The notes under the pieces were generated by a model, which worked only from the letters and a program-made list of their open reading frames with translations, was not told the DNA's origin and did no database searches. From Pseudomonadota bacterium (GTDB lineage: Bacteria > Myxococcota_A > Polyangia > Haliangiales > Haliangiaceae): a stretch of 19,743 bases of DNA. Made by a program: the position numbers and the translations under genes. How positions within the stretch are numbered: position 1 is the first letter of the stretch; each line of letters starts with the position of its first letter. This document shows, piece by piece, positions 502-19,743 of the stretch. Location of the stretch: the NCBI GenBank assembly GCA_022360315.1, contig JAKSDA010000576.1, forward strand, positions 1-19,743. The letters run 5' to 3'.

Positions 502-1473
502 TTACCGGCTCAGGCTCACCACCCGACCATTGCGCGGCTGCAGCGGCCGGTTGTTGTTGCCATCGTTGCCGGCGTGTTTCAGCTGGCTCAGAGCGTTGCG
601 CAGGATATCTATCTGCTCGGTGGACAGTGTGAGTGGCTCGGAGTACACGAACCAGCGTACGCCTTCGCTGCACGGGGGAGTGGTCAGGGAGCCGTGATAG
701 CGAAAAGTCGTGCGGTCGCTGGGCAGCAGGCCGGAGGCGTCGATCTCCAGCTCGTCGAAGCGGTAGCTCACGCCCTCCTGCCGGGGCAAGATCTGCGCGA
801 GCGTGCGGTCACCGCCCAGCGAAGCCAGCTCGGCGTTCTCGTCGCCAGCTGTGACCAGGATCCCGACGACCGCGAGATCACCCCGCCGGTTGCGATGAAC
901 CAGGTGTAGCTCGAGGACCTGATGCTCGCCGACAAAGGTGTGCTCGCTCGGGGTGTGCCAGTGAAACTGCAACAGCTCGTAGCGCGTACCGGCGATTTTC
1001 AGCCAGCTGCCGGGCTCGTAGTTGAACTGCGCGGTGTGACCGTTATTGACCACGTCGACTGGTGTGGGTCGGTAGTGCAGCCTGAGTTTATCGAGGGTGG
1101 CCATGTCGGCCTGTCCAGGGTTCAGGTCGATCGGCGTCTGCGCCGCACCCTCGCCGCACAGGAACCACTCGGGCGACAGCTCCGCCCATAAGTCCGGGCC
1201 GACACCGTCTTCATAGCCGAATACCGGCCCCGGCTCGGCCGGCTCGAGGATGATCTCACCCACGGTCTCGGTGCCAGGTTCGCTGCGGTCGTCATCACCA
1301 TCGTCACCATCGTCATCATCGTCGTCACCGTCATGGTTGTCATTATGGTAGGTAGCGGCCGCGGCTGTGGCGGCGATGTCGTCGCCGCGGCTCGACTCGC
1401 GGTCGTCCAATCTGGCACAACCCGAGGTGGTGAGGAGGAGCAGGGCAAGGACAAGGTTCAGCTTGGAGTTCAT
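502..1473 (-). CDS. Alpha-class carbonic anhydrase, predicted lipoprotein, with an acidic poly-Asp/Gly linker after the lipobox
   Basis: The translation carries hallmark alpha-CA motifs: QTPIDL, LQFHWHTPSEHT, LAVVGILV and FRYHGSLTTPPCSEGVRWFV. The N-terminus MNSKLNLVLALLLLTTSGC is a signal peptide with a lipobox. The run DGDDDDDDGDDGDDD lies between the lipobox and the catalytic domain. Confidence 0.9.
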   Translation of the reverse strand: MNSKLNLVLALLLLTTSGCARLDDRESSRGDDIAATAAAATYHNDNHDGDDDDDDGDDGDDDRSEPGTETVGEIILEPAEPGPVFGYEDGVGPDLWAELSPEWFLCGEGAAQTPIDLNPGQADMATLDKLRLHYRPTPVDVVNNGHTAQFNYEPGSWLKIAGTRYELLQFHWHTPSEHTFVGEHQVLELHLVHRNRRGDLAVVGILVTAGDENAELASLGGDRTLAQILPRQEGVSYRFDELEIDASGLLPSDRTTFRYHGSLTTPPCSEGVRWFVYSEPLTLSTEQIDILRNALSQLKHAGNDGNNNRPLQPRNGRVVSLSR

Positions 1474-3951: not shown

Positions 3952-4330
3952 CGCCTCTTCGTAACACGGCAGTTCGTGCCGGGCAAGACAAGCAAATGCG
4001 GCCGTGGTCGCCGACGAGGCCGGCTAAAACACCTCGGCACGGCGACGAGAACGCACCTGTGCGAAGGCATTCACCCAGTGAATTACCCGTGGCGCCAGCC
4101 GATGCGGCCGCAGCAGGTGGTCTCGTGCAGAGCACGGAGTCCAGCACGATTTGGCTCCATGAGTGATCAAATGCGAAAATACCGTGGTATCGGGTCGAAT
4201 GCTTTCGAGGTGGCGGGATCAACACAGCCAGTCTGGCCAGGAATGTGGCTGACTCGAAATCCACGTAGCCGGCCATTGGCTCTTCGATGGTTCTATCATG
4301 AAACTGAATTTAGTTTGGATAGTTCCATGT

Positions 4331-4353
4331 TGCAACCAACAAGAGTGCAACCA
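4331..4353. promoter_or_regulatory. Direct repeat TGCAACCA-N7-TGCAACCA inside a locally AT-rich intergenic island; candidate transcription-factor binding site
   Basis: The 8-mer occurs at 4331-4338 and again at 4346-4353. It sits in an AT-rich stretch (about 4290-4450) that contrasts with the ~66% GC surroundings. The stretch is the divergent upstream region of the histidine-kinase operon and of a possible + strand gene. Confidence 0.25.
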
Positions 4354-4432
4354 TCGGATCAAGGCATACCGCATTCGTCAAAATATTGAGTTTGAATCAT
4401 GTAACTTTTTGCCAAACAATAGTAGTTTTACA

Positions 4433-4858
4433 GTGAAATACGAATACCAGCTCACCGAAAAAGGCTTCGATGCTGCCGGGGTTCTCATTGCGATGATGCT
4501 CTTCGGCGATGCCAGGTCCTTCAGAAAAGCGCGCGAGCCGATCCGGATCTACAGTCGAGCGACCGACCGACGAGTGCAGCCGGTTCTCGTCGACGCCGAG
4601 ACCGGTGAGCCGATCGATCCCCGAGACCTCTACGCTGGTCCCGGGCCTTCCTTTCCCCGGTCCGAATCCGCTACTATTATGAGCAAGCTGTCCGGCGGAC
4701 TCCCGGCGGGCGCCCCATGTGCCCGAAATCGGCTGATCGCCGCTCTCGGCCGGGGCGCACGCAGATTCGGGGAAACGATTTTTCCCGAATGCTTCCAGGG
4801 CGCCGGTCGTGGGGGCCAGATCGTACTCGGCAGCTGCAACCTCACGACAGAGCTATGA
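4433..4858 (+). CDS. Hypothetical protein; coding frame supported only by third-position GC bias, start uncertain (GTG 4433 or ATG 4493)
   Basis: Third-position GC is high in this frame from about 4450 to the TGA at 4856-4858. I recognise no motif. The first ~45 codons of the listed ORF (4298-4432) are AT-rich and unlikely to be coding. Confidence 0.3.
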   Translation: MKYEYQLTEKGFDAAGVLIAMMLFGDARSFRKAREPIRIYSRATDRRVQPVLVDAETGEPIDPRDLYAGPGPSFPRSESATIMSKLSGGLPAGAPCARNRLIAALGRGARRFGETIFPECFQGAGRGGQIVLGSCNLTTEL

Positions 4859-4955
4859 TGGATCGATCATCCGGGCCAGCGCGATCACTGCTGGCTTACC
4901 GAACAGGTCACGCGAGCCAGTATGATGGACACAACGCTCCCCTCGGCTTGCCGTG

Positions 4956-5171
4956 TCACAGATTGTTGGCGAGCAAGCCGATGGCGGCAGCCAGGAGCAA
5001 CACCGTGATGATGCGGCCCCACCACTTGTACTTATCCGACTCTTCTTTGCCCGTGACTGAATCAGCAATCCCCTTGAAACCACTACGCATTCCTGTCATC
5101 AGGCCACCTTTGCGACGACCTGAAGAGCCCTTGCGTCGGCGCCGTTTGCTCTTCCGCTTGCCCTTGGCCAT
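4956..5171 (-). CDS. Small, highly basic protein with a C-terminal transmembrane helix (tail-anchored type); hypothetical
   Basis: The N-terminus MAKGKRKSKRRRRKGSSGRRKGG is strongly basic. The C-terminal segment WWGRIITVLLLAAAIGLLANNL is hydrophobic. Third-position GC is reasonable. The start could instead be at 5198. Confidence 0.35.
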   Translation of the reverse strand: MAKGKRKSKRRRRKGSSGRRKGGLMTGMRSGFKGIADSVTGKEESDKYKWWGRIITVLLLAAAIGLLANNL

Positions 5172-5312
5172 AGACCGAGTATAGCTCGCCCGGTCCATGT
5201 CTCGGTTCGAGTTGGTTAGCAATTTTCACATGGGGCTTGTTTTTTGGCGATGATTCCCGTAACTATGTCTGTCTTTGCTTTCAACCACCCCCAACCACAG
5301 GAGTAAGATGGA

Positions 5313-5813
5313 TTGGACACGTTCGGGCAGCATTTACTGGTGGAGTATCACGGCTGTGATACCGAGATTCTCAATGATTCGACGCGTATCGAGACGATCA
5401 TGTGCAAGGCAGCCGAGGCTGCGCAGGCGACTGTAGTCGCCTCGACGTTTCATCGCTTTTCGCCCTACGGCATCAGCGGTGTGGTGGTCGTCGAAGAATC
5501 TCACTTATCGATACACACCTGGCCTGAATGTGGATATGTGGCCGTCGATTTCTTTACCTGTGGCGAGTGCACACCCGAACGGGCTCACGATTTTATTCGC
5601 GACAAGCTCTCGGCCCAGCGTTCCGAAGTAATGGTTGTGCACCGGGGCACGTTTCCACCGGGGCCGTCGATGCAGATCATGCGTCATTATCACGAAGGTG
5701 ACGATGATACGCCCCGGCCGCGGGAAGGCTCGGCGCATTCCTTGCCGGGGCAAGGCGGACAAGGCGGGGCCGGAGTCTCCCGCATCGATGAATCTCCATC
5801 AAGGGAGGGCTGA
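5313..5813 (+). CDS. speH: S-adenosylmethionine decarboxylase proenzyme, class 1b (SpeH type), with an unusual ~50-aa low-complexity C-terminal extension
   Basis: It starts on TTG, preceded by GGAG. The conserved proenzyme self-cleavage motif VVVVEESHLSIHTWPE is present, as are FHRFSPYGISG and FFTCGE. The C-terminal tail is Gly/Pro/Asp-rich. Confidence 0.88.
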   Translation: MDTFGQHLLVEYHGCDTEILNDSTRIETIMCKAAEAAQATVVASTFHRFSPYGISGVVVVEESHLSIHTWPECGYVAVDFFTCGECTPERAHDFIRDKLSAQRSEVMVVHRGTFPPGPSMQIMRHYHEGDDDTPRPREGSAHSLPGQGGQGGAGVSRIDESPSREG

Positions 5814-5815
5814 CC

Positions 5816-6655
5816 GTGGCGTTATGGTACGAGGAGAAATTCGATGACAAAGCCCGTTACTCGCTGCGAGTCGAGCGCACAGTGTTCGACGAGTGCAGCG
5901 AGTTTCAGCACATTCAGATCGTGGACACGGCGGCATATGGCCGGGCTCTCGTCATCGACGATATTTTCATGACCAGTGACAGGGACGAGTTCTTCTACCA
6001 CGAGATGCTGGTTCATCCAGCACTGGTCACTGCGCCGTCGGTCGAACGAGTGCTCATCATCGGAGGCGGCGATGGCGGTACAGCGCGCGAAGTGCTGCGT
6101 CATAGCGAGGTCAAAGAAGTCATCATGGTGGAGATCGACGGCACGGTGGTCGATGCCTGCAAGAAGCATATGCCGGGTCTCGGTGCCTGGACCGACCCAC
6201 GTCTGCAGGTTCGCATTGATGATGGCATCAGCTTTGTCAAGAATGCCGAAGTCGCACCGTTTGACGTGGTCTTCTTGGACGGGACCGATCCGGTCGGCCC
6301 GGGCAAAGGGCTCTTCAACAGCGATTTCTACCGCGGGGTAAAACGCGTTCTCAAACCGGCCGGTTTGTTTGCCCTGCAGAGCGAGTCGCCGTTTTACATG
6401 GGCGACGTGTTTCTCGATATCCAGCGCAGGTTGGGCGAGATATTCTCCGCTGTGACGCCGTACTTTGGTCCCGTACCGATCTATGCCTCGGGTAGCTGGT
6501 CGTGGACTTGCGCCGGCGACGCGATCGATCTCGCCGCAATGGATGCAGTCCGGCTGGAGGTGGTCGAGCGCGACTGCAAGTACTACAACCGCGACATTCA
6601 TCGAGCTGCTCTGGCGCTGCCAAACTATCTGCGTCAGGTGCTCGGCCGTCGCTGA
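5816..6655 (+). CDS. speE: Spermidine synthase (aminopropyltransferase)
   Basis: The GTG start is 3 nt after the speH stop. VLIIGGGDGGTAREVLRH...VIMVEIDGTVVD is the class-I methyltransferase-like dcSAM site. DVVFLDGTDPVGP and FYRGVKRVLKPAGLFALQSESP are typical SpeE motifs. Confidence 0.92.
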   Translation: MALWYEEKFDDKARYSLRVERTVFDECSEFQHIQIVDTAAYGRALVIDDIFMTSDRDEFFYHEMLVHPALVTAPSVERVLIIGGGDGGTAREVLRHSEVKEVIMVEIDGTVVDACKKHMPGLGAWTDPRLQVRIDDGISFVKNAEVAPFDVVFLDGTDPVGPGKGLFNSDFYRGVKRVLKPAGLFALQSESPFYMGDVFLDIQRRLGEIFSAVTPYFGPVPIYASGSWSWTCAGDAIDLAAMDAVRLEVVERDCKYYNRDIHRAALALPNYLRQVLGRR

Positions 6656-8794: not shown

Positions 8795-10180
8795 TCACAG
8801 ACCGCGCAATCGCTTGATCGAGCGTGCAAACTGCGCGGCTGTCTCCTGACGCCCAAGGTGGGCACCGTTGTTGACTCGCTGCTGTCCAGCGACAAAGACG
8901 TCGCGTACGGCACCGTGAGCGGTGCCGAAGATCCACGCGTCGAGCACTGTGTCGGGCCCGTGACCGACCAGCCGGGGATGATCTGCGTCGAGTGCGACGA
9001 GATCGGCGCGCCGGCCCGGCACCAGTGCGCCGATCGGTTGATCGAGCGCATCGGCGCCCGATCTGGCTGCGCGATCGAACAAAAAACGCCCGACGTGATG
9101 CTCGTCGTTGCCGGTGAGCAGATTGCGCTGCTCTTTGACGAGTCGCTGTCCATACTCCAGAGTGCGAAGCTCATCGATCGCACTGACCGTGACGTGGCTG
9201 TCGCTACCGATGGCCAGCTTGCCCCCCCTGGCCACGAAATCCACCGCCGGAAACACGCCGTCACCGAGATTGGCCTCGGTCGTTGGGCACAGGCCGACCA
9301 CGACCCCGCTGGACGCCAGTAGAGCCACCTCGCCCGGGTCGACATGGGTCGAGTGGACCAGGCACCACCGTTCGTCGAGTTCGTCGCCGAACTGGCCAAC
9401 CAGCCAGCGCACCGGTCGGTCGCCGAGAACTGGCACCGCTTGATCGACCTCGTTTTTTTGCTCGGCGATGTGGATATGAATCGGTGCGCGAGAATCGCGC
9501 GCGCGAATTTCGCTCACCACCTCGCGCAGAGCGTCACCGACTACTGCGCGCAGGCTGTGCGCAGCGAAACCGAGGCGCACGAGCCGGCTCGGCTGTTCCG
9601 GCACTGCCAGCGTTTCGAGGGTGGCGACAAACTCGCCGACCGTGCCGTGAATAAACCGCCGCTGTTCGGCCATGGGCTCGCTGTCAAAGCCTCCTTTCAT
9701 GTACAGTACAGGCAAGAGGGTGAGCCCGATGCCAGCCTTTCGCGCCGCTGCGACGATTCGGTGGCTGGTCTCGGCTCGGTCCGGGTAGGGCGAGCCGTCG
9801 CGATCGTGGTGCAGGTAATGGAACTCTCCCACCGCGGTCATACCGGCTTCCAGCATCTCGACGTAGAGCTGGGCGGCGATGGCCGAAATGTCCTCGGGCT
9901 CGATGGCAAGGGCGAGTCGATACATCTCGACCCGCCAGGTCCAGAACGAGTCGGCGCGGGCAGGATCGGCGCGCTCGGTCAGGCCGACCAGTGCGCGCTG
10001 AAACGCATGGGAATGCACATTGGCCATGCCGGGGATCACCCAGCCATCGAGCCGTACGGTAACCTGGCCGGACGCGCCCCGCTCGACCCGGGTGATCATA
10101 CCGTCGCCATCGACGTGAAGCGTGCCCGGCGACAGCCAGCCGCCGGGCTGATGGAGATGCTCGCACACAATGGTCTGCAT
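8795..10180 (-). CDS. hutF: Formimidoylglutamate deiminase (amidohydrolase superfamily)
   Basis: PGMANVHSHAFQRALVGLTE...SFWTWRVEMY...EMLEAGMTAVGEFHYLHHD closely follows the HutF N-terminal metal-binding region. The HIHIAEQ and GSDSH motifs are typical of the amidohydrolase family. Confidence 0.8.
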   Translation of the reverse strand: MQTIVCEHLHQPGGWLSPGTLHVDGDGMITRVERGASGQVTVRLDGWVIPGMANVHSHAFQRALVGLTERADPARADSFWTWRVEMYRLALAIEPEDISAIAAQLYVEMLEAGMTAVGEFHYLHHDRDGSPYPDRAETSHRIVAAARKAGIGLTLLPVLYMKGGFDSEPMAEQRRFIHGTVGEFVATLETLAVPEQPSRLVRLGFAAHSLRAVVGDALREVVSEIRARDSRAPIHIHIAEQKNEVDQAVPVLGDRPVRWLVGQFGDELDERWCLVHSTHVDPGEVALLASSGVVVGLCPTTEANLGDGVFPAVDFVARGGKLAIGSDSHVTVSAIDELRTLEYGQRLVKEQRNLLTGNDEHHVGRFLFDRAARSGADALDQPIGALVPGRRADLVALDADHPRLVGHGPDTVLDAWIFGTAHGAVRDVFVAGQQRVNNGAHLGRQETAAQFARSIKRLRGL

Positions 10181-10343
10181 CGGCCCAGGATAATGCGCGC
10201 AACCTGTGGGTCAATGGCCGGTTGCCGATCGCGTCGCCCGCCATTCGATCGGCCGCTCATATGTGGGCGCGGCGCGTGGAGAAGAGAGGACCACTGGGTG
10301 TAGCATTGCCGCTCCCGGTCACAACACACGAGGAGTGCAGCGC

Positions 10344-13223
10344 ATGGCCGAACGCGGAAGCCGCAAGATCCCCGTCACGGATCGCCAATTTTTGTGGGTT
10401 CAAGACGACGACAAAGGCGAGGTGATCCTTCACGTCGGACCCACCATGGTGTCGCCGACCGCCGCTGATCGAGTGGTGATCGACGACGGCAACGGCGGGT
10501 TTCGAGAGGATCCCAGCGGGCAACCGCAGCGCATGGTCGAGCTGTCCGATGCGCAATACGCGGTGCTCTACAATCCACTGATCGAAAGCGAGGAGGAGGG
10601 CCCCAACGGCAAGTTCCGGCCCGGTCGCAACGAGTCGCGCGAACTGCGCAACGGGACCCGCAACATGATTCCAGGGCCGTGCAGCTTTTATCTGCGGCCG
10701 GGCCAGCGGGTCGAGATCCGCGACGCCCACGAACTGGCTTCCAATCAGTACCTCGTGGTCAAGGTCTACGGCGAGGTCGACGAGAACGCACCGTATTATG
10801 TAATTACTGCCAAATCGGCCACGATCACGACTGCCACGGCGGAGGAAGTGGCGGGCGGATCGGGCGGAAGCGAGATGAGCGAGGCCGAGATCGGCGATGT
10901 AAGCCTCACCCGGGGCCAGCTCATCGTGATTCGGGGGTTGGACACTCAGTTCTATATTCCGCCCACTGGAGTGGACGTGGTACCCGATCTGTCGGTCGAC
11001 AATCAGGGCAAGGTGCTGAACGCGGCTGCTGCGCGCCGGATCCTGTCGTCGATGCCAGCACCGGCCGCGGCCCTTCCGGTGCCACCGCCTCCGCCCACGG
11101 AGATATCGCCACAGGCCGTGGCCCCGCCGGGCCCGGCCGGTGCCTTGCCGCTCGAGCTGGCAGAGGCCGCCGAGGGCGCGGACAAAGAAGTGGACGAGGC
11201 GCGGCGCAAGCGCAGGCGAGAAAAGCCGATGCGCCAGGCCCGCTACGCCAAGGTCGAACAAGCGGCACGCGTCCGCCACCAGGCTCAGCGCCCTCCTCTT
11301 CAGCCCGAGCCAACCCCGTCCGGGGCCGGGCAGCCGCGCCTGTCCAGCGACGAGATCCAGCAGCTTCTGGCCAGTGATGTACACCGCCGCGCGCTCGAGC
11401 GCGAGGTCAGAAAAATGCGGTTGATCCGCCAGGCTGTGGTGCTCAGCGAAAAGGAGTTTTGCGTGATCATCGATGCCGACGGCAAGCGGCAGATCAAGCG
11501 CGGTCCGGCGCGGGTGTTTCCCGGGCCGTACGACTCGTTCATGACCAAGGGGTCGCGCGACCGCATTTACGATGCCTACGAGCTCTTGCCCCAGCGCGCC
11601 CTGTGGCTGCGTTTCATCGCACCGATCGCCCGCGACAAACTGGCCGCGCTCTTGCCGCGCGGGGTTCATCTGGACACGGAGGTGTATCAGCCGGGCGATG
11701 AATTCATTTTGACCGGGGTCAATTCGTTTTTCTTTCCGTTTAACGAGGTCGAGATTCTCCACCCACTCAACGGCCAGCCCCACGTCGGCAATGATCACTC
11801 CGAGATCTTCATCGAGGCTATCGGTATCGATCAGAAGAGCGGCATTTACGTGCGCGACCTGGCCACCGGGGAGGTTCGCACGGTGCGCGGCAAGCAGTCA
11901 TATCTGGTCGACCCCCGCAAAGAAGTCCATATTACCCGCACCATTTCGTCCGACGACTGGAATTTGTGGATCGCGCTCGGCGAGCCACACAAACTCACCG
12001 ACGAACCGGTGACCACGCCGTGGGCCATCTCGATCACGGTACCGCACAACAATGCAGTGCTGGCCACGTCGGCCGATGGCCAGCGAGTGATCGAGGGGCC
12101 GTGCGTCGAGCTGCTCGAGTACGAGGAGACGCTGGTGCCAATGGCTCTGTCCACCGGCCGGCCCAAGAGCGCGAGGCATCCATTGCGCACGTGCTTTTTG
12201 CGCACAGTGGGCAACCGGGTGTCCGACATGGTCACCCTGGAAACCGCCGATTTCGTCAAAGTAGATGCCGAGGTGAGTTACCAGGTCAACTTCGACCTGC
12301 AGTTCAAAGACCGCTGGTTCAATCACGAGAACTACGTCGGCGTGCTCTGCGATCACCTTCGTTCGCTGGTGCGAAGTCGAGCCCGCCAGATGGCTCTCAA
12401 CGAAATTTGGCCCAATATCTCGAGCGTCATTCGAGACGCGGTCCTCGGTGAAAAAACCGCGGAGGGCCGCCAGGGCCGACTATTTGACGAAAACGGCATG
12501 CGGGTCACCGAGGTCGAGGTACTCTCGTCCGAGATATTGGACAAAGAGATCGCCGTTTTGCTCGAAAGTGTGCAGCGCGAGTCAGTTGCCCTGGTCATCG
12601 GCGACCGCCAGATATCCGAGCAGTTGCGCTCGGAGAAGCTGCGCCACGACATCGAACGCGAGCGCCAGGAAATGAAACGCGAGGCCACGGAACGCAAGGC
12701 CTCGCTCGACGAGCTTTTGCGCAAGCTGACCCAGGAGGCCGGGCTGGCCGAGTTGCGCGGCAGGGAAGCGACCGAGCGCGAAGCTGCCGAGCTGGCCGCC
12801 GGCCGCGAGCAGATCATCCTGGACAGCACCTTGGCCCGGGAAAAGTCGCAAAACGACGCCCACATCGCCCGGCAACGCGATGCCACCACGGCCAAGGTCG
12901 ATATGAACCGTCTCGCCCACGAAGAGGAGCAGGCTTACCGGCAAGCTCTGACAAACATCGAGATGCAGCGCATCGAGGTGCAGAGCAAGGCCACTGTGGC
13001 CGAGCGGCAGGCGATTCAGCCCGCCCTGGTCGAGGCGCTCACTGCGCTGGGCGACAAGATCATGCTCGGTGAAGTGGCCAGGAACATGAACCTGGTCAGC
13101 CTGTTCAAGGGCAAAGACATCGCCCACATCTTCGCCGACGTGCTCGGCGGCACCAAGCTGGGTCGCACCATCGCGGCCCAGTTACCGAAAAAGCCCGACA
13201 ATGACGGGGGTGACGGTGTCTGA
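10344..13223 (+). CDS. Major vault protein (MVP) homologue: N-terminal MVP repeats, band-7/SPFH-like shoulder, cap-helix coiled coil, cap-ring tail; contains a Pro-rich/basic insertion
   Basis: ATG 10344 is preceded by GAGGAG. Several segments align by eye to human MVP: GIYVRDLATGEVRTVRG (MVP GIYVQDVKTGKVRAV-G), ISITVPHNNAVL (VSYRVPHNAAVQ), LSTGRPKSARHPLR (LSAGRPKRPHARR) and TLETADFVKVD (TIETADHARLQ). A ~200-aa E/R/K/Q-rich heptad region follows, and the C-terminus is ...LFKGKDIAHIFADVLGGTKLG. The N-terminus carries multiple ~50-aa beta-rich repeats (KIPVTDRQFLWVQDDDKGEVILHVGPTMV...). Confidence 0.88.
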   Translation: MAERGSRKIPVTDRQFLWVQDDDKGEVILHVGPTMVSPTAADRVVIDDGNGGFREDPSGQPQRMVELSDAQYAVLYNPLIESEEEGPNGKFRPGRNESRELRNGTRNMIPGPCSFYLRPGQRVEIRDAHELASNQYLVVKVYGEVDENAPYYVITAKSATITTATAEEVAGGSGGSEMSEAEIGDVSLTRGQLIVIRGLDTQFYIPPTGVDVVPDLSVDNQGKVLNAAAARRILSSMPAPAAALPVPPPPPTEISPQAVAPPGPAGALPLELAEAAEGADKEVDEARRKRRREKPMRQARYAKVEQAARVRHQAQRPPLQPEPTPSGAGQPRLSSDEIQQLLASDVHRRALEREVRKMRLIRQAVVLSEKEFCVIIDADGKRQIKRGPARVFPGPYDSFMTKGSRDRIYDAYELLPQRALWLRFIAPIARDKLAALLPRGVHLDTEVYQPGDEFILTGVNSFFFPFNEVEILHPLNGQPHVGNDHSEIFIEAIGIDQKSGIYVRDLATGEVRTVRGKQSYLVDPRKEVHITRTISSDDWNLWIALGEPHKLTDEPVTTPWAISITVPHNNAVLATSADGQRVIEGPCVELLEYEETLVPMALSTGRPKSARHPLRTCFLRTVGNRVSDMVTLETADFVKVDAEVSYQVNFDLQFKDRWFNHENYVGVLCDHLRSLVRSRARQMALNEIWPNISSVIRDAVLGEKTAEGRQGRLFDENGMRVTEVEVLSSEILDKEIAVLLESVQRESVALVIGDRQISEQLRSEKLRHDIERERQEMKREATERKASLDELLRKLTQEAGLAELRGREATEREAAELAAGREQIILDSTLAREKSQNDAHIARQRDATTAKVDMNRLAHEEEQAYRQALTNIEMQRIEVQSKATVAERQAIQPALVEALTALGDKIMLGEVARNMNLVSLFKGKDIAHIFADVLGGTKLGRTIAAQLPKKPDNDGGDGV

Positions 13224-14138: not shown

Positions 14139-15239
14139 TCAGGGCTGCTGAACAAAGCCGCGCACTTCGGGACCCCAGCTCGCCGGGTCGTTGGCCCAGC
14201 GCGGCGCGGTCCCGGGGGCGACCAGGACCGTGGAACCGAACACGGCAATCGACGGAAGATTGCTGGGTCCGGTGTCCGGGCGCAATTTGGTCACCGCGCC
14301 TGCCGGCAGCTCGATGACCTCGATGTTGTATTCGCTACTGTGGACGGGGCGGTCAAAGACGCGCAGCGCCACGAGGGCCCGCCGGCCCGGAACGCCGATG
14401 AGCTTCACCCCATCGTAGCCCTGGAATTTGACCATGGAGGCGCCGCCACCCGAGCGCGCGTCCACGAGCATCAGGCCACTGGGAGCATAAGCCGCGACGA
14501 TCGCCCCGTCACCAGTGACTCCGACGGCGAGCCGGTCAAGGAATCCGTGACCCGGTGTCCACGGGGTGCGCCAGCGCTCCTTCAGGGTGTTGCCATCGAT
14601 GGCGATGACGTGGCCCTTGGCCTCCTCCGGAGCGCTGCCCGGGGTCTCGCCCGAGAGAAAGAGCACGTCGTCGGTGGGACTGGCCGCAGCGGCGAAGCGA
14701 AAGATCTCCCGGTTGGACAGGGTACGGCTGGCCAGGACGCTTGGCGGGACTTTCGGGGCCAGGCTGACCAGCTCCAGGGTGAGGGACTTGCCCTCCTCGT
14801 GCAGCACCACGACCCGGTCGCGACTGGCCCCCAGCCGGTAGCCCCGCCAGCGGGCGTAATCGCCGCCGGCCGGTCCCAGGGGGATGGCCAGATCCGGGCG
14901 AGCGGTCGAGCGCAGCACCGGGTGGGTCAGGTCCTCAGCGGTCACGTAAGCCACCTCGCCGCTGTTGTCCGGGCCGGCGACCACGTTGCCGCGGGCGCGG
15001 GCCACCACCTCGCCGGTGGACCGCTCGATCACCTTGATCACTGGCGACATCCGGGGCTCGCCGACAAAGATCAACTCGGCCGCCAAAAAGCGCCCGTCGG
15101 GCGATGCCCACAGGCCGGCGGCCCCGCGGGCGGGCCCGTAGTCTGTCACCGCCAGGTCGAGTTTGGACATGGATGATTTGCCACTGCACGAGTGCGACCC
15201 ATAGGCCGCGACCAGTGCCATGGAGATGACGATAGGCAT
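14139..15239 (-). CDS. Secreted (possibly lipo-)protein, beta-rich, hypothetical; downstream partner of the DUF4157 giant gene
   Basis: The preferred start at 15239 gives MPIVISMALVAAYGSHSCSG, a signal peptide. The longer ORF starting at 15296 would overlap the upstream gene. The sequence has repeated beta-strand-like segments and I recognise no motif. It lies 46 nt downstream of the DUF4157 gene. Confidence 0.5.
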   Translation of the reverse strand: MPIVISMALVAAYGSHSCSGKSSMSKLDLAVTDYGPARGAAGLWASPDGRFLAAELIFVGEPRMSPVIKVIERSTGEVVARARGNVVAGPDNSGEVAYVTAEDLTHPVLRSTARPDLAIPLGPAGGDYARWRGYRLGASRDRVVVLHEEGKSLTLELVSLAPKVPPSVLASRTLSNREIFRFAAAASPTDDVLFLSGETPGSAPEEAKGHVIAIDGNTLKERWRTPWTPGHGFLDRLAVGVTGDGAIVAAYAPSGLMLVDARSGGGASMVKFQGYDGVKLIGVPGRRALVALRVFDRPVHSSEYNIEVIELPAGAVTKLRPDTGPSNLPSIAVFGSTVLVAPGTAPRWANDPASWGPEVRGFVQQP

Positions 15240-15285
15240 GAACGCGCCGCCAGATGATGCTCTGGCGGGGTTTGGAGCAGTGCTA

Positions 15286-18200
15286 CTACAGTCCATGTAT
15301 CTTCTTCAACGCGTCATAGCGGTCCTGGTGTAAACCGTCGAGATCCCAGTCGAGATTACCGACCTTTTTGATGATGGCCTTCACCTCGGATTTGTCGGCG
15401 CTCTCCAGGATGGACACGATGAGCTCCTGGGCATTGTCGCCGGTGCGCCCGCTGGCCATGCGCTCCACCCAGTGGATCTTGGTCGATTGGCTCATGACTC
15501 GAAAGTAGCCCTTGTCCTTGAGTACTCCGGTCATCTGCGCGCTCTCGGCGCCGTCGATCTTGGACCAAAATTGGCCATAACCGATGTTGTCGACAATGGA
15601 CTTGACATCGCCGTCGGCGCTCGATTCGACGATGCGGATAATGGCCGCTTCGTCGTCGTTGCCGCAGGATCCGTCCATGAGCGTCGTGATCCACTCTGTC
15701 TTGGTGGCCAGGTCCGCAGTCAGGTGCCGCTCCGCGTCCACGGCTGCGCGCACCCCGTCATCATCCATGCGCACCGCATCGAAGCGCTCCTGGTGCGAGC
15801 CGGTGAGATCCCAGTCGAGGCTGGTGCTGCCGACTTTGTCGACGATGGCCTTGGCCTCGGCCGGGCTGGAGCTCTCCAGGATGGCCATGATGAGCTCTTG
15901 GGCGTTGGTGTTGGTGCGCGCGCTGGACATGCGCTGTACCCAGTCGATCTTGGTCTCCAGACTCATGGAGCGAAAGTAGCCCTTGTCCTTGAGCACCCCG
16001 GTCATCTGCGCGCTCTCGGCGCCGTCGATCTTGGACCAGAATTTATCGTAGCCGATGCCGTCGACGATAGTCTTGACATCGCCGGGCAGGCTCGACTGGA
16101 TGATGCGGATGATGGCCGCCTCGTCGTCGTCGCCGCAGGATCCGGCCATGAGCGTGGTGATCCACGCCTGCTTTTGCTCCGAATTCAGGTCGATGTGCTC
16201 GCTCAGGGCGACCGCGGCGCGCACTCCGTTGTCGTCCATGTGGGCAGACGTCTCGGGGCTCTTGCTCAGGACCTTGCTGCACAGGGTGTTCCACTCGGCG
16301 CCGTCGATGCCCGAGTCGAGGTAGTCGATGCCCTTGGCGACGTCGCCATTGCCCAGTTGTTTGACGATGGTGACCATGTTGGGGACCGTGGCCGTGTCGA
16401 GCATCTCGATGATCGCCCGCTCCTCGTCGTCGGCGCACGAGCCAGACACGAGAAACTGGATGGCCTTGTGCCTCTGCTCGGTGGTCAGGGTGGCCAGGGC
16501 TCCCTCGGCCCGGGCCTTCCTGTAGTATTCCATGGCGTTGTCGTCGGCGTTGATATTCTCCGCTCGTTGTGGTTCAGCGTCCGGGTCTTGGTTACCAGCG
16601 TGGACGGGCTCGCGGGTGTCGGGGACGTAGTTGATGACTGCTTCAAACGTGGTAATGACTTTGCTCTGGTCGCCCTTGAGGAGGGCAAGCACACCTTTCT
16701 TTAGCGCCTCGTCCTTGTACTCCTCATCCATCTGTATCTCTTTGCCGAGCTCGTCCGCCTTGTTGTTGGCGAATACGCGCAGAGCTTCTCTCATCGTGCC
16801 GTCTCGGAGCAGCTCATCGACGGTCTCCCGTTGCCACTTGGGAGTCTCGGCCTGGCCCGGTGCGCTATCTGGCAGCGCCTTGGGCCACAATTGCTCGGCG
16901 CGAAATAGGCCGTCTGACAGGTTGAGAGCCGCCACCACAGCGTCGGGATCCTGGCCGGCCTTGCCCATGGCATGGGCGTCGTGAATGTCTTTGAGGCTCA
17001 CCTTGACCGCCGCCGCCGCCAGCTTGCCCGTCTCTATTCCACGGGTCTTGGGGGCGTCATTTTTGTCGAGTACCTCGCCGTCACCAAATAGCTTGACGAT
17101 CTGGTCGCCCACCTGCACGTCGACCCCGGTTTGGTTGTCCATGTCGTGGACCGCGCCGGAGATGACGTTGCCAAACGTCAAATTGGGTATGCCCTTATCT
17201 TGGAGCGTCTTCGCGATTGTCGTGCGCCCCTCGCGCCACATATAGTTAACTGTGACCAAGTCACCGCGCCAGTTATTCTCGTCGATATACCTGGCGATCC
17301 GCTCGGCCATCCACCAGTGCAAGTTGGTCCAGAACATGGGCACCCGCTCGTTCCACCAGTGTTCGATGGACACCCGCTCGGTGCGCACGTGTCCACCCGA
17401 ATAGGCGTCGGTGAGGAAGTGACTGGCAAAGGCCTCGTGGAGCAGAGCTCTGTCTCTGCGGTCACCCGACTTGCCGGCCTCGGCGGCGGCCTTGATGGCA
17501 TCGATGTGGTTTTTCCGGTAGCTGCCCGCGTTGTTGACCGGCTCTCCTGCCTTGTCCCGCTTGTTGGCCCGTTGCTCGTGGGTCAGCGCATCGTCGCCGC
17601 GCTCGGAGTTGGTGAAGTGGGTCGGGTTGAACGAGGCCATCTCGTAATAGCGCTTCTTGACGGTCCTGCGCAGGTCGGCGCCAAACGACTCCTCCTCGTC
17701 CTCGTGGCCCTGCACCTCGACCCGCAGTACATAGAGGATTTCGTCTCGGGTGCCGGGACAGTTCTTGCCGTCGCCCGGCTTGCCGGCGAGCTCCTCGATC
17801 TGGGCGACGCTCTTGAAGTAGTCGCCGGCCGTGGCGGTGATGTCGCCAAAGCTGACCTCAAAGCCCGGGCTCAGCTCGATCTTGGCGTTTCCCGACCCCG
17901 CATCGCCCATCTTCTTGTGCTCGTTGGACTCGAACCGCTGGATGACGGCCTTCTTTTGCGTGGCCGAGCCGCCTGACTGCAGCCCTGATGTGGGGGCGCC
18001 CGCGGCCGACTGGGCGCCCGCCCCCTTGCCCTGGGCCGCCCTGGCACCCATCTGGTCCGCCTCTCGCTCCAGAGAGGCGTCGTCGTTGACCGCCACTCCA
18101 TCGACCTGGGTGGTCACCGCGACCCTGCCCTGGCTCTGCTGTACCACGTGAGCCAATTCGTGGCCGAGAAGCTCCTGTCCCGCCGGGCTGTGGGGCTGAT

Positions 18201-18726
18201 ACTGTCCGGGGGCAAAGTGCACATCCGCGCCCTGAGTGTACGCTTGGGCGCCGATGGCCGGGGCGTGTGGCCCCTGGTGAACGCGTACTGCGGAAAAGTC
18301 GGCGGCAAACGCGGCCTCCATCTTGGCTTGGACGTCGGCCGGCAGTTTACTACCCGTTCCACCTGTTGAGGCAGGTGAATCCGGTCGCTCTGCGGGCTCT
18401 ACGGTTTTTCTCTTAGCCTGAATGGGCCCGTAGTACGGAGGTGCCGAGGTGCCGATTTCGTCATAACTAGCTCGTAATAAAGGGCTTTGGTAAAGGCCGG
18501 GACGCAACGCCACGTCGGTCCAATCTTCAATCAAGCCCGTCCCATGATGCGTCGGTGATTGCGCCCCCGATGATTGCTTGCGTTGCACCGGTGCAAAAAG
18601 ACGAGCCTCTGGAAGAGGCAGCTTGCTCGTCAATGTCCTCTTCCCCTGGGCAACTGAATGTCGCGAGGCTCCTACGCCTATGTCGTGTGTCGTGCGCGCA
18701 TGCTTGTCGTGACGGTGACGTGTCAT
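15286..18726 (-). CDS. Large multidomain protein: N-terminal DUF4157 (eCIS/polymorphic-toxin-associated zincin-like HExxH domain), central domain of unknown function, C-terminal tandem ~150-aa repeats
   Basis: [49 protein letters not shown]...[15 protein letters not shown] followed by [13 protein letters not shown] is the DUF4157 signature. There is no signal peptide. Two C-terminal repeats each contain WITTLM(A/D)GSCG(D/N)DDEAAIIRI...VK(T/S)IVD.IGY...[24 protein letters not shown]. Confidence 0.85.
15289..16230. repeat. Intragenic tandem direct repeat, two copies of ~461-471 bp with >85% identity (runs of ~60 identical bp), plus a shorter degenerate third copy upstream (~16230-16560)
   Basis: The same DNA blocks recur at roughly 15341/15805, 15511/15972 and 15662/16133. 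They encode the two near-identical C-terminal protein repeats of the DUF4157 protein. Boundaries are approximate. Confidence 0.8.
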
Positions 18727-18765
18727 GAACGACCCCCCAGCGGTTGTGGCTATCCGGACTGCGAG

Positions 18766-18792
18766 AATGGATTAATGAGAATGGATTAATTG
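18766..18792. repeat. Short direct repeat GAATGGATTAAT x2 (3-nt spacer) in the lower-GC upstream region of the DUF4157 gene
   Basis: gaatggattaatgagaatggattaattgag lies directly upstream of the start of the 15286..18726 gene, inside a region of about 50% GC. Confidence 0.5.
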
Positions 18793-19522
18793 AGTGTGTT
18801 CACCTGATTACTCGTCATCTGCTCGATTCCGACCTCGGTTACGTTGATGGTTACTGTCGCCCGTATAGGAGTTCCGTCAGACAAAAACATGGAGAATTCT
18901 TAGTCCATTGACTCAATGACACCACGAAAGGGCCGAATCCTACACTACGGCAACATCACGAACGGTGGCCGCTTAGCTCCCCAAGATGTGCTCCTCTCTC
19001 AATCCTTGGCGACGCGACATCTGAGTTATTACAGGGTTTCATCGTACCGTTTCCCTTCCTGACCGTCCACCACTTTGCGTGCCATTCTGAGGAGGATTAG
19101 GGATCGCAAGCGAACATTGACGCGAATTACTGCTCAGAATTTCGCCGGATTTTGTGGTCTATTCGCTGGCAAATGCTGGTAAACCTGCGTCCAAGTCACG
19201 ACGCCTCCGGACCATCGTAGCTTCTGTCGAAAAGAATGTAGTCGATACAGGACATAAATCTACTTTGAGTGCCACCAGAGTATCAAAGCGAGACTTGCCG
19301 TATGCAGGTTATGGATGGCCCGAAGAATGGCGCATCAGTCACAATCTCGACCGATGCAGGGCACTGCGGTCGACGGATACCAGACCATTCACGAACTTGG
19401 CAAAACGGGGATGGGCGCAATCTAACTTGCGCAACACACGATTACCGATCGCAAGGCTGCCGTCAAAACGATCGGGCCGAAGTGTCCCAGCCACGAGGAT
19501 AAGAACCGCAAAGGAGTCGAGG

Positions 19523-19743
19523 ATGAGTAGCAAGAAGCGTCGTCGCCAATTCACCGCCCAGCACAAGGCAGCCATTATGAGACGAATGATGTTTGAACAG
19601 GCCGCCGTCTCGGACTTGGCCGACGAATACAAGATACAGCCAAGCCAGCTGTATCATTGGCACAAGCAAGTTCAGGACAACCTGGAAGCGGCGTTCGCGG
19701 GCGATAGGGGCAAGCGGGCGACGCAACACCAGCAAGCCCAGGA
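19523..19743 (+). mobile_element. IS3-family insertion sequence, 5' part of transposase orfA (helix-turn-helix), truncated by the window end
   Basis: AAGGAG precedes ATG 19523. The translation is MSSKKRRRQFTAQHKAAIMRRMMFEQAAVSDLADEYKIQPSQLYHWHKQVQDNLEAAFAGDRGKR. The basic N-terminus, the HTH and the ...LY.W.KQ...EAAFAG motif are characteristic of IS3/IS911-type OrfA. The left inverted repeat is probably within about 19400-19500 but I could not define it. Confidence 0.75.

Follow-up and report, generated by a model that had tools for sequence, protein, structure and literature searches.

A full-length bacterial homologue of the major vault protein in Myxococcota, with a clade-specific disordered insertion and a putative vault-like assembly

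The stretch of DNA analyzed here (hereafter the window) comprises 19,743 nucleotides of contig JAKSDA010000576.1 (GenBank assembly GCA_022360315.1; GTDB lineage Myxococcota_A, Polyangia, Haliangiales, Haliangiaceae) and carries, in the midst of ordinary bacterial genes, one gene that encodes a major vault protein (MVP) homologue. The gene occupies most of an open frame on the + strand (10206-13223). Its 959-residue product, read from the ATG at position 10344, is also the product called by independent gene callers on four identical ENA metagenome contigs, and its initiator methionine coincides with the start residue of the homologues in our alignment A1. The Shine-Dalgarno sequence that an initial annotation of this DNA had ascribed to the gene is present upstream of the ATG. 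The same annotation had described a native high-GC codon usage that speaks against eukaryotic contamination, and this agrees with a GC content at third codon positions (GC3) of 0.79, within the range of the neighboring genes (0.64-0.87), and with the bacterial genes that flank the MVP gene on both sides in four independent contigs. The MVP gene is real and native to a bacterium, and contamination by eukaryotic DNA is excluded.

When all PDB sequences were searched with phmmer, rat and human MVP were matched at an E-value of ~1e-24 and MVP chains were the sole matches. The alignment runs from residue 365 to 906 of the window protein and from 274 to 817 of the rat protein, i.e., from the sixth MVP repeat (R6) through the cap helix, and identity to the human and rat proteins is ~26%. 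In Pfam, MVP_shoulder (PF11978) matched residues 624-733 over model positions 3-118 of 118 (E 2.1e-23; 83 bits at a cut-off of 25). Vault_3 (residues 563-619; 27.6 bits) and Vault_4 (residues 492-524; 20.5 bits) stayed below their gathering cut-offs of 28.8 and 22.9, respectively, and the window protein had no Pfam match to PF01505 (Vault) and none to PF01145 (Band_7) at E ≤ 1. NCBIfam holds no model for the homologue. A family profile (A3) built from 46 diverse prokaryotic members aligned with rat MVP at 1.4e-62 and in collinear order: weakly over R1-R2 (profile 17-123 with rat 14-104), with 54 bits over R6-R8 (225-374 with 275-421) and with 136 bits over R9, the shoulder and the cap helix (454-798 with 452-827).

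These comparisons place the window protein in the MVP family with near certainty, and it is, as the initial annotation had proposed, a true homologue of MVP, bacterial and essentially full-length. Both the shoulder match and the predicted repeats, on whose absence that annotation had staked the refutation of its proposal, were found. Of the Pfam profiles it had named as a check, the shoulder profile bore it out and PF01505 did not. Three of the four motifs it had quoted align with rat MVP (IYVRDLATGEVRTVRG at residues 501-516, VPHNNAV at 566-572 and STGRPKSARHP at 603-613), whereas the fourth, IETAD, is the sequence of rat MVP and reads LETAD at residues 632-636 of the window protein.

Residues 1-360 are barely recognizable from sequence alone. 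Against MVP the N-terminal region scored an E-value of 0.5 with phmmer and 0.016 with a profile of the clade, and Vault_2 was matched in just 3 of 28 N-terminal homologues, at an E-value of 0.01 for the best of them. Profile-profile comparison with hhalign showed residues 9-127 and 96-213 to be related to the R6/R7-like repeats of the same protein at ~1e-5 (1.1e-5). AlphaFold2, given the diverse alignment A3, yielded a model with a mean predicted local distance difference test score (pLDDT) of 78.5 and values of 85-96 in the folded parts (85-93 in the N-terminal module and >90 over residues 360-740). This model supersedes an earlier one on a shallow alignment (57-80% identity), which had a pLDDT of 61 and an unreliable N-terminus. 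We accept the N-terminal MVP-type repeats because of the profile-profile comparison together with the confident model on a diverse alignment; they are recognizable solely by profile or structure. The first repeat (residues 8-60) is the most conserved segment in the clade, with a mean identity of 0.92 and 36 of 53 columns invariant, and the N-terminal module is common to 133 of the 150 top family representatives.

Foldseek returned 12 vault MVP entries as the best matches to the model (3e-36 to 6e-29, ~1000 aligned columns), with R1-R7 of MVP at 2e-14; the nearest other SPFH proteins reached just 1e-6. The repeat domains have the MVP fold and are collinear with R1-R9 of solved MVP, and the shoulder structurally matches the SPFH domains of stomatin, prohibitin and HflK/C. 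Secondary structure and alignment put the number of repeats at approximately eight, four in the N-terminal module and four equivalent to R6-R9, and these form two blocks split by an insertion of ~110 aa rather than a continuous wall of nine uninterrupted repeats. The helix that leads into the second block carries the invariant residues R356, R359 and L360 (A1). Beyond the shoulder, the model predicts a long single cap helix and then a cap-ring segment, as in MVP. The helix extends over residues 734-902 in the shallow-alignment model, which gives a range of ~155-170 aa, shorter than the coiled coil of ~200 aa in the initial annotation. The cap-ring region aligns with rat residues ~800-827 in the A3 profile and is well conserved (mean identity 0.76; A898, G903, D904, K905 and N914-L917 invariant in A1). 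The eukaryotic domain order that had been claimed therefore holds as an order of repeats, shoulder, cap helix and cap-ring, but the wall of repeats is interrupted by the disordered insertion. The highest 19-residue Kyte-Doolittle hydropathy is 1.13, too low for a membrane anchor, and no signal peptide is evident in the N-terminus MAERGSRKIPVT. The N-terminal anchor and the Band_7 match that mark membrane SPFH/band-7 proteins were both absent, the SPFH fold itself being common to both groups. The MVP homologue looks soluble and cytoplasmic. Coordinates of all features are collected in Table 1.

Table 1. Features of the MVP-family gene and its neighbors in the window (positions in nucleotides of the window; residues of the MVP homologue)
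Feature	Position	Strand	Residues	Basis or remark
MVP-family coding sequence	10344..13223	+		959 aa + stop; open reading frame list and translation
Shine-Dalgarno-like GAGGAG	10330..10335	+		8 nt before ATG 10344; direct sequence reading
About four MVP-type beta repeats (N-terminal module)	10365..11018	+	8-225	
Disordered Pro/Ala/Arg-rich insertion	11019..11345	+	226-334	pLDDT <50
VEQAARVR motif in insertion	11253..11276	+	304-311	Family pattern [VI][DE]Q[SA]ARxR
Predicted helix into second repeat block	11346..11423	+	335-360	AlphaFold2 helices 335-343 and 345-360
Four repeats collinear with rat R6-R9	11424..12209	+	361-622	phmmer, A3 profile; pLDDT >90
Keyhole-loop core S-x-G-[KR]-P-K	12150-12167	+	603-608	Just upstream of shoulder
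SPFH/band-7-like shoulder	12210..12542	+	623-733	Pfam MVP_shoulder; pLDDT >90
Single continuous cap helix (predicted)	12543..13010	+	734-889	~155 aa; AlphaFold2; aligns with rat cap helix
Helical cap-ring region	13011..13181	+	890-946	Helices 893-922, 926-933 and 938-946
Short acidic disordered tail		+	947-959	After cap-ring
Alpha-type (eukaryotic-type) carbonic anhydrase	502-1473	-		
speD + speE	5313-6655	+		Adjacent S-adenosylmethionine decarboxylase / spermidine synthase pair
Formimidoylglutamate deiminase, hutF equivalog	8795-10180	-		575 bits; upstream, divergent from MVP gene
Isochorismatase-family hydrolase	60 nt 3' of MVP gene	+		
385-aa hypothetical protein	14139-15296	-		366 aa as called elsewhere; downstream of the 1146-aa open reading frame, 11-nt overlap
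1146-aa protein	15286-18726	-		Only recognizable part eCIS_core/DUF4157, residues 128-200 of this protein, 4e-28

The insertion divides the repeat wall between the fourth and fifth repeats. Among close homologues its length ranges from 79 to 129 aa in one comparison and from 80 to 148 aa in another, and its mean column identity is 0.30. It is missing in ~95 of 118 more distant family representatives, in which the flanking repeats abut directly, and most of the wider family measures 820-930 aa without it. Within this variable stretch, 109 of 120 close homologues carry the motif [VI][DE]Q[SA]ARxR, as do 2 more distant proteins, and Q306, R309 and R311 are invariant in A1. The insertion is specific to what we call the Polyangia-type clade, to which the window protein belongs by its conserved N-terminal module, its 80-150-aa insertion with the motif and a length of ~910-980 aa, and the conserved peptide is a candidate site at which a partner or cargo would dock. 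The insertion and its peptide are the sole features for which we found no earlier description; the passages on bacterial homologues in Daly et al. (2013; PMC3762200) and Sokolskyi (2019; bioRxiv 10.1101/872010) do not mention them. A few relatives carry 231-407 aa at the insertion site, among them P0125 and P0126 with unannotated inserts of 231 and 407 aa. Another MVP-like protein, P0123 (1129 aa, from a Logan assembly), has a PspA/IM30 (ESCRT-III-like) domain there (residues 280-446).

In this lineage, bacterial homologues of MVP are not the great rarity that the initial annotation had supposed. Those of 900-980 aa with 57-80% identity to the window protein number in the hundreds. A search of 5.8 billion proteins gave 361 matches among the scored candidates, the best 120 of which are 57-100% identical to the window protein and mostly full-length (910-980 aa). 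More than 100 proteins are 57-80% identical over 98-100% of the length and come from Polyangium, Minicystis, Byssovorax and metagenome-assembled genomes (MAGs) of Myxococcota, with Polyangiaceae also among the sources of close homologues. With one genome taken per GTDB species, a pattern scan located 74 loci with close homologues, mostly in Myxococcota/Polyangia and including Polyangium fumosum DSM 14668, P. jinanense and Minicystis rosea DSM 24000. An exhaustive search with a hidden Markov model over 1.84 billion cluster representatives (50% identity) recovered 588 clusters at E ≤ 1e-30 and 1241 when the threshold was relaxed to 1e-3. In BLAST with a human MVP sequence, similarity to eukaryotic MVP did not exceed 28% for any of the top 150 representatives; this sequence served as a probe only, on 270 collected proteins, none of which was eukaryote-like, and was never the sole basis of a result. 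Identity of 57-80% across genera in the 120 homologues shows strong purifying selection.

Nor is the family new, as had been implied. Homologues from Corallococcus and Plesiocystis were listed, with a predicted fold and docking like those of MVP, by Daly et al. (2013; PMC3762200), a protein of Enhygromyxa was among those analyzed in silico by Sokolskyi (2019; bioRxiv 10.1101/872010), and several close homologues already bear the name "major vault protein" given by JGI or NCBI. The window protein is an additional member of an already reported, uncharacterized prokaryotic MVP family. Two MVP-like loci occur in some Myxococcota genomes (L009 and L051 in MAG BF4_93; L018 and L071 in MAG La1_concoct.199), and Plesiocystis pacifica likewise has two (Daly et al., 2013; PMC3762200). 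Seven loci at 55-60% identity (L021, L030, L032, L033, L056, L066 and L013) lie in MAGs labeled Planctomycetota or Thermoanaerobaculia, not Myxococcota; mis-binning or lateral spread could account for these labels.

Just upstream of the shoulder lies a second conserved element. In human MVP, NAD+, ADP and ADP-ribose are bound between neighboring shoulders and behind the so-called "keyhole loop" (PMC12280208; bioRxiv 10.64898/2026.05.01.722283), the core of which (S501-A-G-R504-P-K506) follows the pattern S-x-G-[KR]-P-K. This pattern is conserved from the prokaryotic family to human, and S603 and K608 are invariant in the 46 diverse sequences. Eleven pocket residues could be mapped through the rat alignment (among them R504, K506, R507, P508, H509, R511, L517, D521, F522 and W545; R437, P565 and K573 fall outside the mapping). 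The window protein retains the equivalents of R504, K506 and H509 as R606, K608 and H612, a set that is atypical for the clade, in which the loop consensus is GTPKSD. The match of STGRPKSARHP to rat MVP is thus in part a peculiarity of the window sequence. L517, D521, F522 and W545 are replaced in the clade by conserved R, N, R and V (R620, N624, R/K625 and V648), and the basic residues R615, R620 and R625 near the loop are conserved in the family. The complete NAD+/ADP-ribose pocket was not found in the window protein. The human pocket as such is not retained, but a basic loop is, and this loop might bind a phosphate-bearing ligand.

Taken as a whole, the window protein is probably best explained as a member of the prokaryotic MVP family that is soluble, resides in the cytoplasm and self-assembles in a vault-like manner. 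Every SPFH structure returned by the fold searches is a ring or cage assembly. We propose that protomers would pack side by side, as in vault MVP and the solved SPFH proteins. Through contacts between their shoulders and through their cap helices, joined in a parallel barrel, they would build a closed dome, and the repeats would hang from it as a thin wall. The rim would consist of the highly conserved first repeat and could be where two halves dock, as it is in vaults, and the insertion would be displayed mid-wall in many copies, each presenting the conserved docking peptide. A closed vault-like particle is plausible because of the dome, the repeat wall and the conserved rim that we infer. 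On this analysis a large ring- or dome-shaped oligomer is likely to form, and a closed particle of two halves may form, with a chance that we place slightly short of even. That the Polyangia-type homologues are genuine bacterial vault-like nanocompartments in which dozens of copies of the insertion peptide recruit a specific cargo or partner is a speculative, rather doubtful extension of this proposal.

Several points weigh against a vault-like assembly. The Pfam repeat models PF01505, PF17795 and PF17796 all fall under threshold. The disordered insertion of ~110 aa in the middle of the wall is without counterpart in solved vaults, and it could prevent a continuous wall or leave the N-terminal module a flexibly tethered appendage. 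Among the mapped pocket residues only the equivalent of K506 (K608) is invariant in the clade. The vault partners (TEP1, PARP4-like proteins and vault RNA) are not present in the window, no conserved neighboring gene that would hint at a cargo was found at the 74 loci and in three further contexts, and our literature search returned no experimental report of bacterial vault particles or of assembly of a bacterial MVP. The structure prediction covers the monomer, and cage formation, its symmetry and the docking of halves are inferred from vault and SPFH structures.

The main rival to a free, closed vault is a single cup lying against a membrane or other surface, of the kind formed by the SPFH proteins HflK/C, flotillin, prohibitin and stomatin. 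Its rim or the insertion would touch the inner membrane or some other surface, and the cup would organize a microdomain or enclose a membrane protein. All the non-vault SPFH assemblies returned by the fold searches are membrane-seated, a subpopulation of Dictyostelium vaults is membrane-associated in situ (PMC13100048), and P0123 has its membrane-remodeling PspA/IM30 domain exactly at the insertion site. Against such a cup stand the hydropathy profile, with its lack of any transmembrane or strongly hydrophobic segment, the absence of an evident signal peptide and of a conserved membrane-protein neighbor, and the wall of ~8 repeats, which separates vaults from membrane SPFH cages and is fully retained here. 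We consider the membrane cup unlikely.

Less probable still is a scaffold or ligand sequesterer that would form no cage. Such a protein would work in monomeric or small oligomeric form, for instance through nucleotide binding at the shoulder loop, a role hypothesized for bacterial MVP-like proteins by Sokolskyi (2019; bioRxiv 10.1101/872010). The conservation of S-x-G-[KR]-P-K up to human MVP, the conserved R615, R620 and R625 nearby and the binding of NAD+, ADP and ADP-ribose at the keyhole loop of human MVP (PMC12280208; bioRxiv 10.64898/2026.05.01.722283) are consistent with it. However, the human pocket lies between two adjacent protomers (PMC12280208), so that ligand binding presupposes assembly; most of the pocket residues are replaced in the clade, and a conserved single helix of 155 aa with a cap-ring is hard to explain without lateral oligomerization.

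MVP is best known from eukaryotes, and a eukaryotic source of the gene, through contamination of the assembly or recent transfer, deserves mention for that reason. Transfer from eukaryotes to bacteria was also considered for the bacterial homologues by Daly et al. (2013; PMC3762200). The identity of only ~26% to human and rat MVP, the place of the window gene in a large bacterial radiation in which 0 of the 150 top representatives are eukaryote-like, and the native GC3, Shine-Dalgarno sequence and bacterial flanks in four independent contigs make this highly improbable, and recent transfer is effectively refuted. A generic band-7/SPFH protein whose N-terminal region is unrelated to MVP, to which the absent or sub-threshold Pfam repeat models and the lack of any Pfam match for the N-terminal 369 aa alone might point, is refuted by the alignment of the A3 profile with rat MVP and the fold-search results, in accord with the significant MVP_shoulder match and the MVP repeat domains of the predicted structure, and retains almost no probability.

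Comparison with known systems helps to place the putative vault-like assembly. Eukaryotic MVP (rat and human; PDB 4V60, 7PKZ and 9BW5) and the window protein have a common collinear architecture of repeats, shoulder, cap helix and cap-ring. Eukaryotic MVP builds barrel-shaped particles from two symmetric halves, with 39-fold symmetry in rat and human. The window protein differs in its low identity, in having ~8 repeats and not nine, in the insertion between the repeat blocks, in the replacement of most residues of the NAD+/ADP-ribose pocket and in the lack of TEP1, PARP4 and vault RNA nearby, and its assembly is putative. The bacterial homologues reported from Corallococcus (H8MNI3), Plesiocystis (A6FXM1/A6FXE2), Enhygromyxa (A0A0C2D5V5) and Saprospira (H6L4P8) belong to the same prokaryotic MVP-like family of gliding predatory bacteria, Myxococcales among them, and an MVP-like fold has been predicted for them in silico (PMC3762200; bioRxiv 10.1101/872010); the window protein is set apart by the Polyangia-type insertion and motif, which the passages describing these proteins do not mention. 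Asgard archaeal MVPs (Nat Microbiol 2026, PMC12962969) likewise have repeats, a shoulder and a cap helix, and closed cups have been proposed for them, but they have five repeats and were modeled as decamers, whereas the window protein is bacterial and has ~8 repeats and an insertion. Membrane SPFH cages (HflK/C, flotillin, prohibitin, stomatin and QmcA) have an N-terminal membrane anchor and no MVP repeat wall, whereas the window protein lacks a hydrophobic anchor and a Band_7 Pfam match.

MVPs have also been reported from gut phages (bioRxiv 10.1101/2023.11.10.566534). By tblastn we found distant relatives of the window protein in uncultured huge phages of 462-735 kb (28-31% identity over ~80% of the query), as MVP-like open reading frames in the unannotated records LR756500 (LR756500.1, 20955-23339), LR756501 (LR756501.1) and LR756503 (LR756503.1, 17320-19566). 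These may extend the 2023 report to megaphages. The window gene, in contrast to phage MVPs, is chromosomal and lacks a phage or plasmid context.

What vaults do has been an unsettled question since 1986, and a bacterial, an Asgard and a eukaryotic origin of the particle are all debated. Cultured myxobacteria that have a homologue of full architecture provide a simpler system for asking if a closed particle is specified by the MVP fold alone, and such a homologue could show the role of the particle without TEP1, PARP4 and vault RNA. If the nanocompartment proposal were true, these would be the first prokaryotic vaults in culturable hosts (Polyangium, Minicystis rosea) and would carry, unlike eukaryotic vaults, a built-in targeting handle. 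The copy in the window adds little by itself, as the family is already recorded, the organism is an uncultured one from a metagenome and the gene context is uninformative. The new points are modest: the size of the family, the clade insertion with its peptide, the keyhole-loop core shared from bacteria to human and the lack of a conserved partner gene.

With regard to this last point, tblastn of all 13 window neighbors against the 74 related loci found none adjoining an MVP homologue. Among clusters of flanking open reading frames at these loci, the widest (16 of 74) consists of kinase paralogues that are not adjacent, a cluster of MutS_V-like genes (10 of 74) is confined to closely related loci such as those of Polyangium genomes, and the Pfam-annotated contexts of three further homologues all differ. 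The MVP gene is a stand-alone unit without a conserved operon partner, and genomic context therefore gives no clue to cargo or role. No association with TEP1, PARP4/vPARP or vault RNA was found in the window or at the 74 loci; the window encodes no TROVE, NACHT, WD40 or PARP protein and no vault RNA detectable with Rfam.

Several candidate functions and origins were rejected on such grounds. An operon-based function was set aside for want of a recurring neighbor at related loci. The adjacent isochorismatase-family gene was considered as a nicotinamidase tied to vault NAD+ biology, and this link was rejected because its NCBIfam matches to several cysteine hydrolases are weak and sub-threshold and the adjacency is not conserved. 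A role in anti-phage defense found no PADLOC match among the MVP homologue and four neighboring genes, a vault RNA or other non-coding RNA found no Rfam family or tRNA anywhere in the window, and an origin in a mobile element found no plasmid homologue and just the distant huge-phage relatives.

The remaining neighbors (Table 1), which also include a two-component pair and a periplasmic binding protein, are all ordinary bacterial genes. No other histidine-utilization genes are visible in the window beside hutF. The 1146-aa protein with the eCIS_core domain and the 385-aa protein encoded next to it have no PADLOC or NCBIfam matches and are a possible toxin/effector-type pair. GC content drops to 0.56-0.59 over positions ~4000-6500, lower than in the rest of the window. 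At its end, positions 18500-19743 have a GC content of ~0.53, compared with ~0.63 elsewhere, and no long open reading frame; this edge of the window may be intergenic or of foreign origin.

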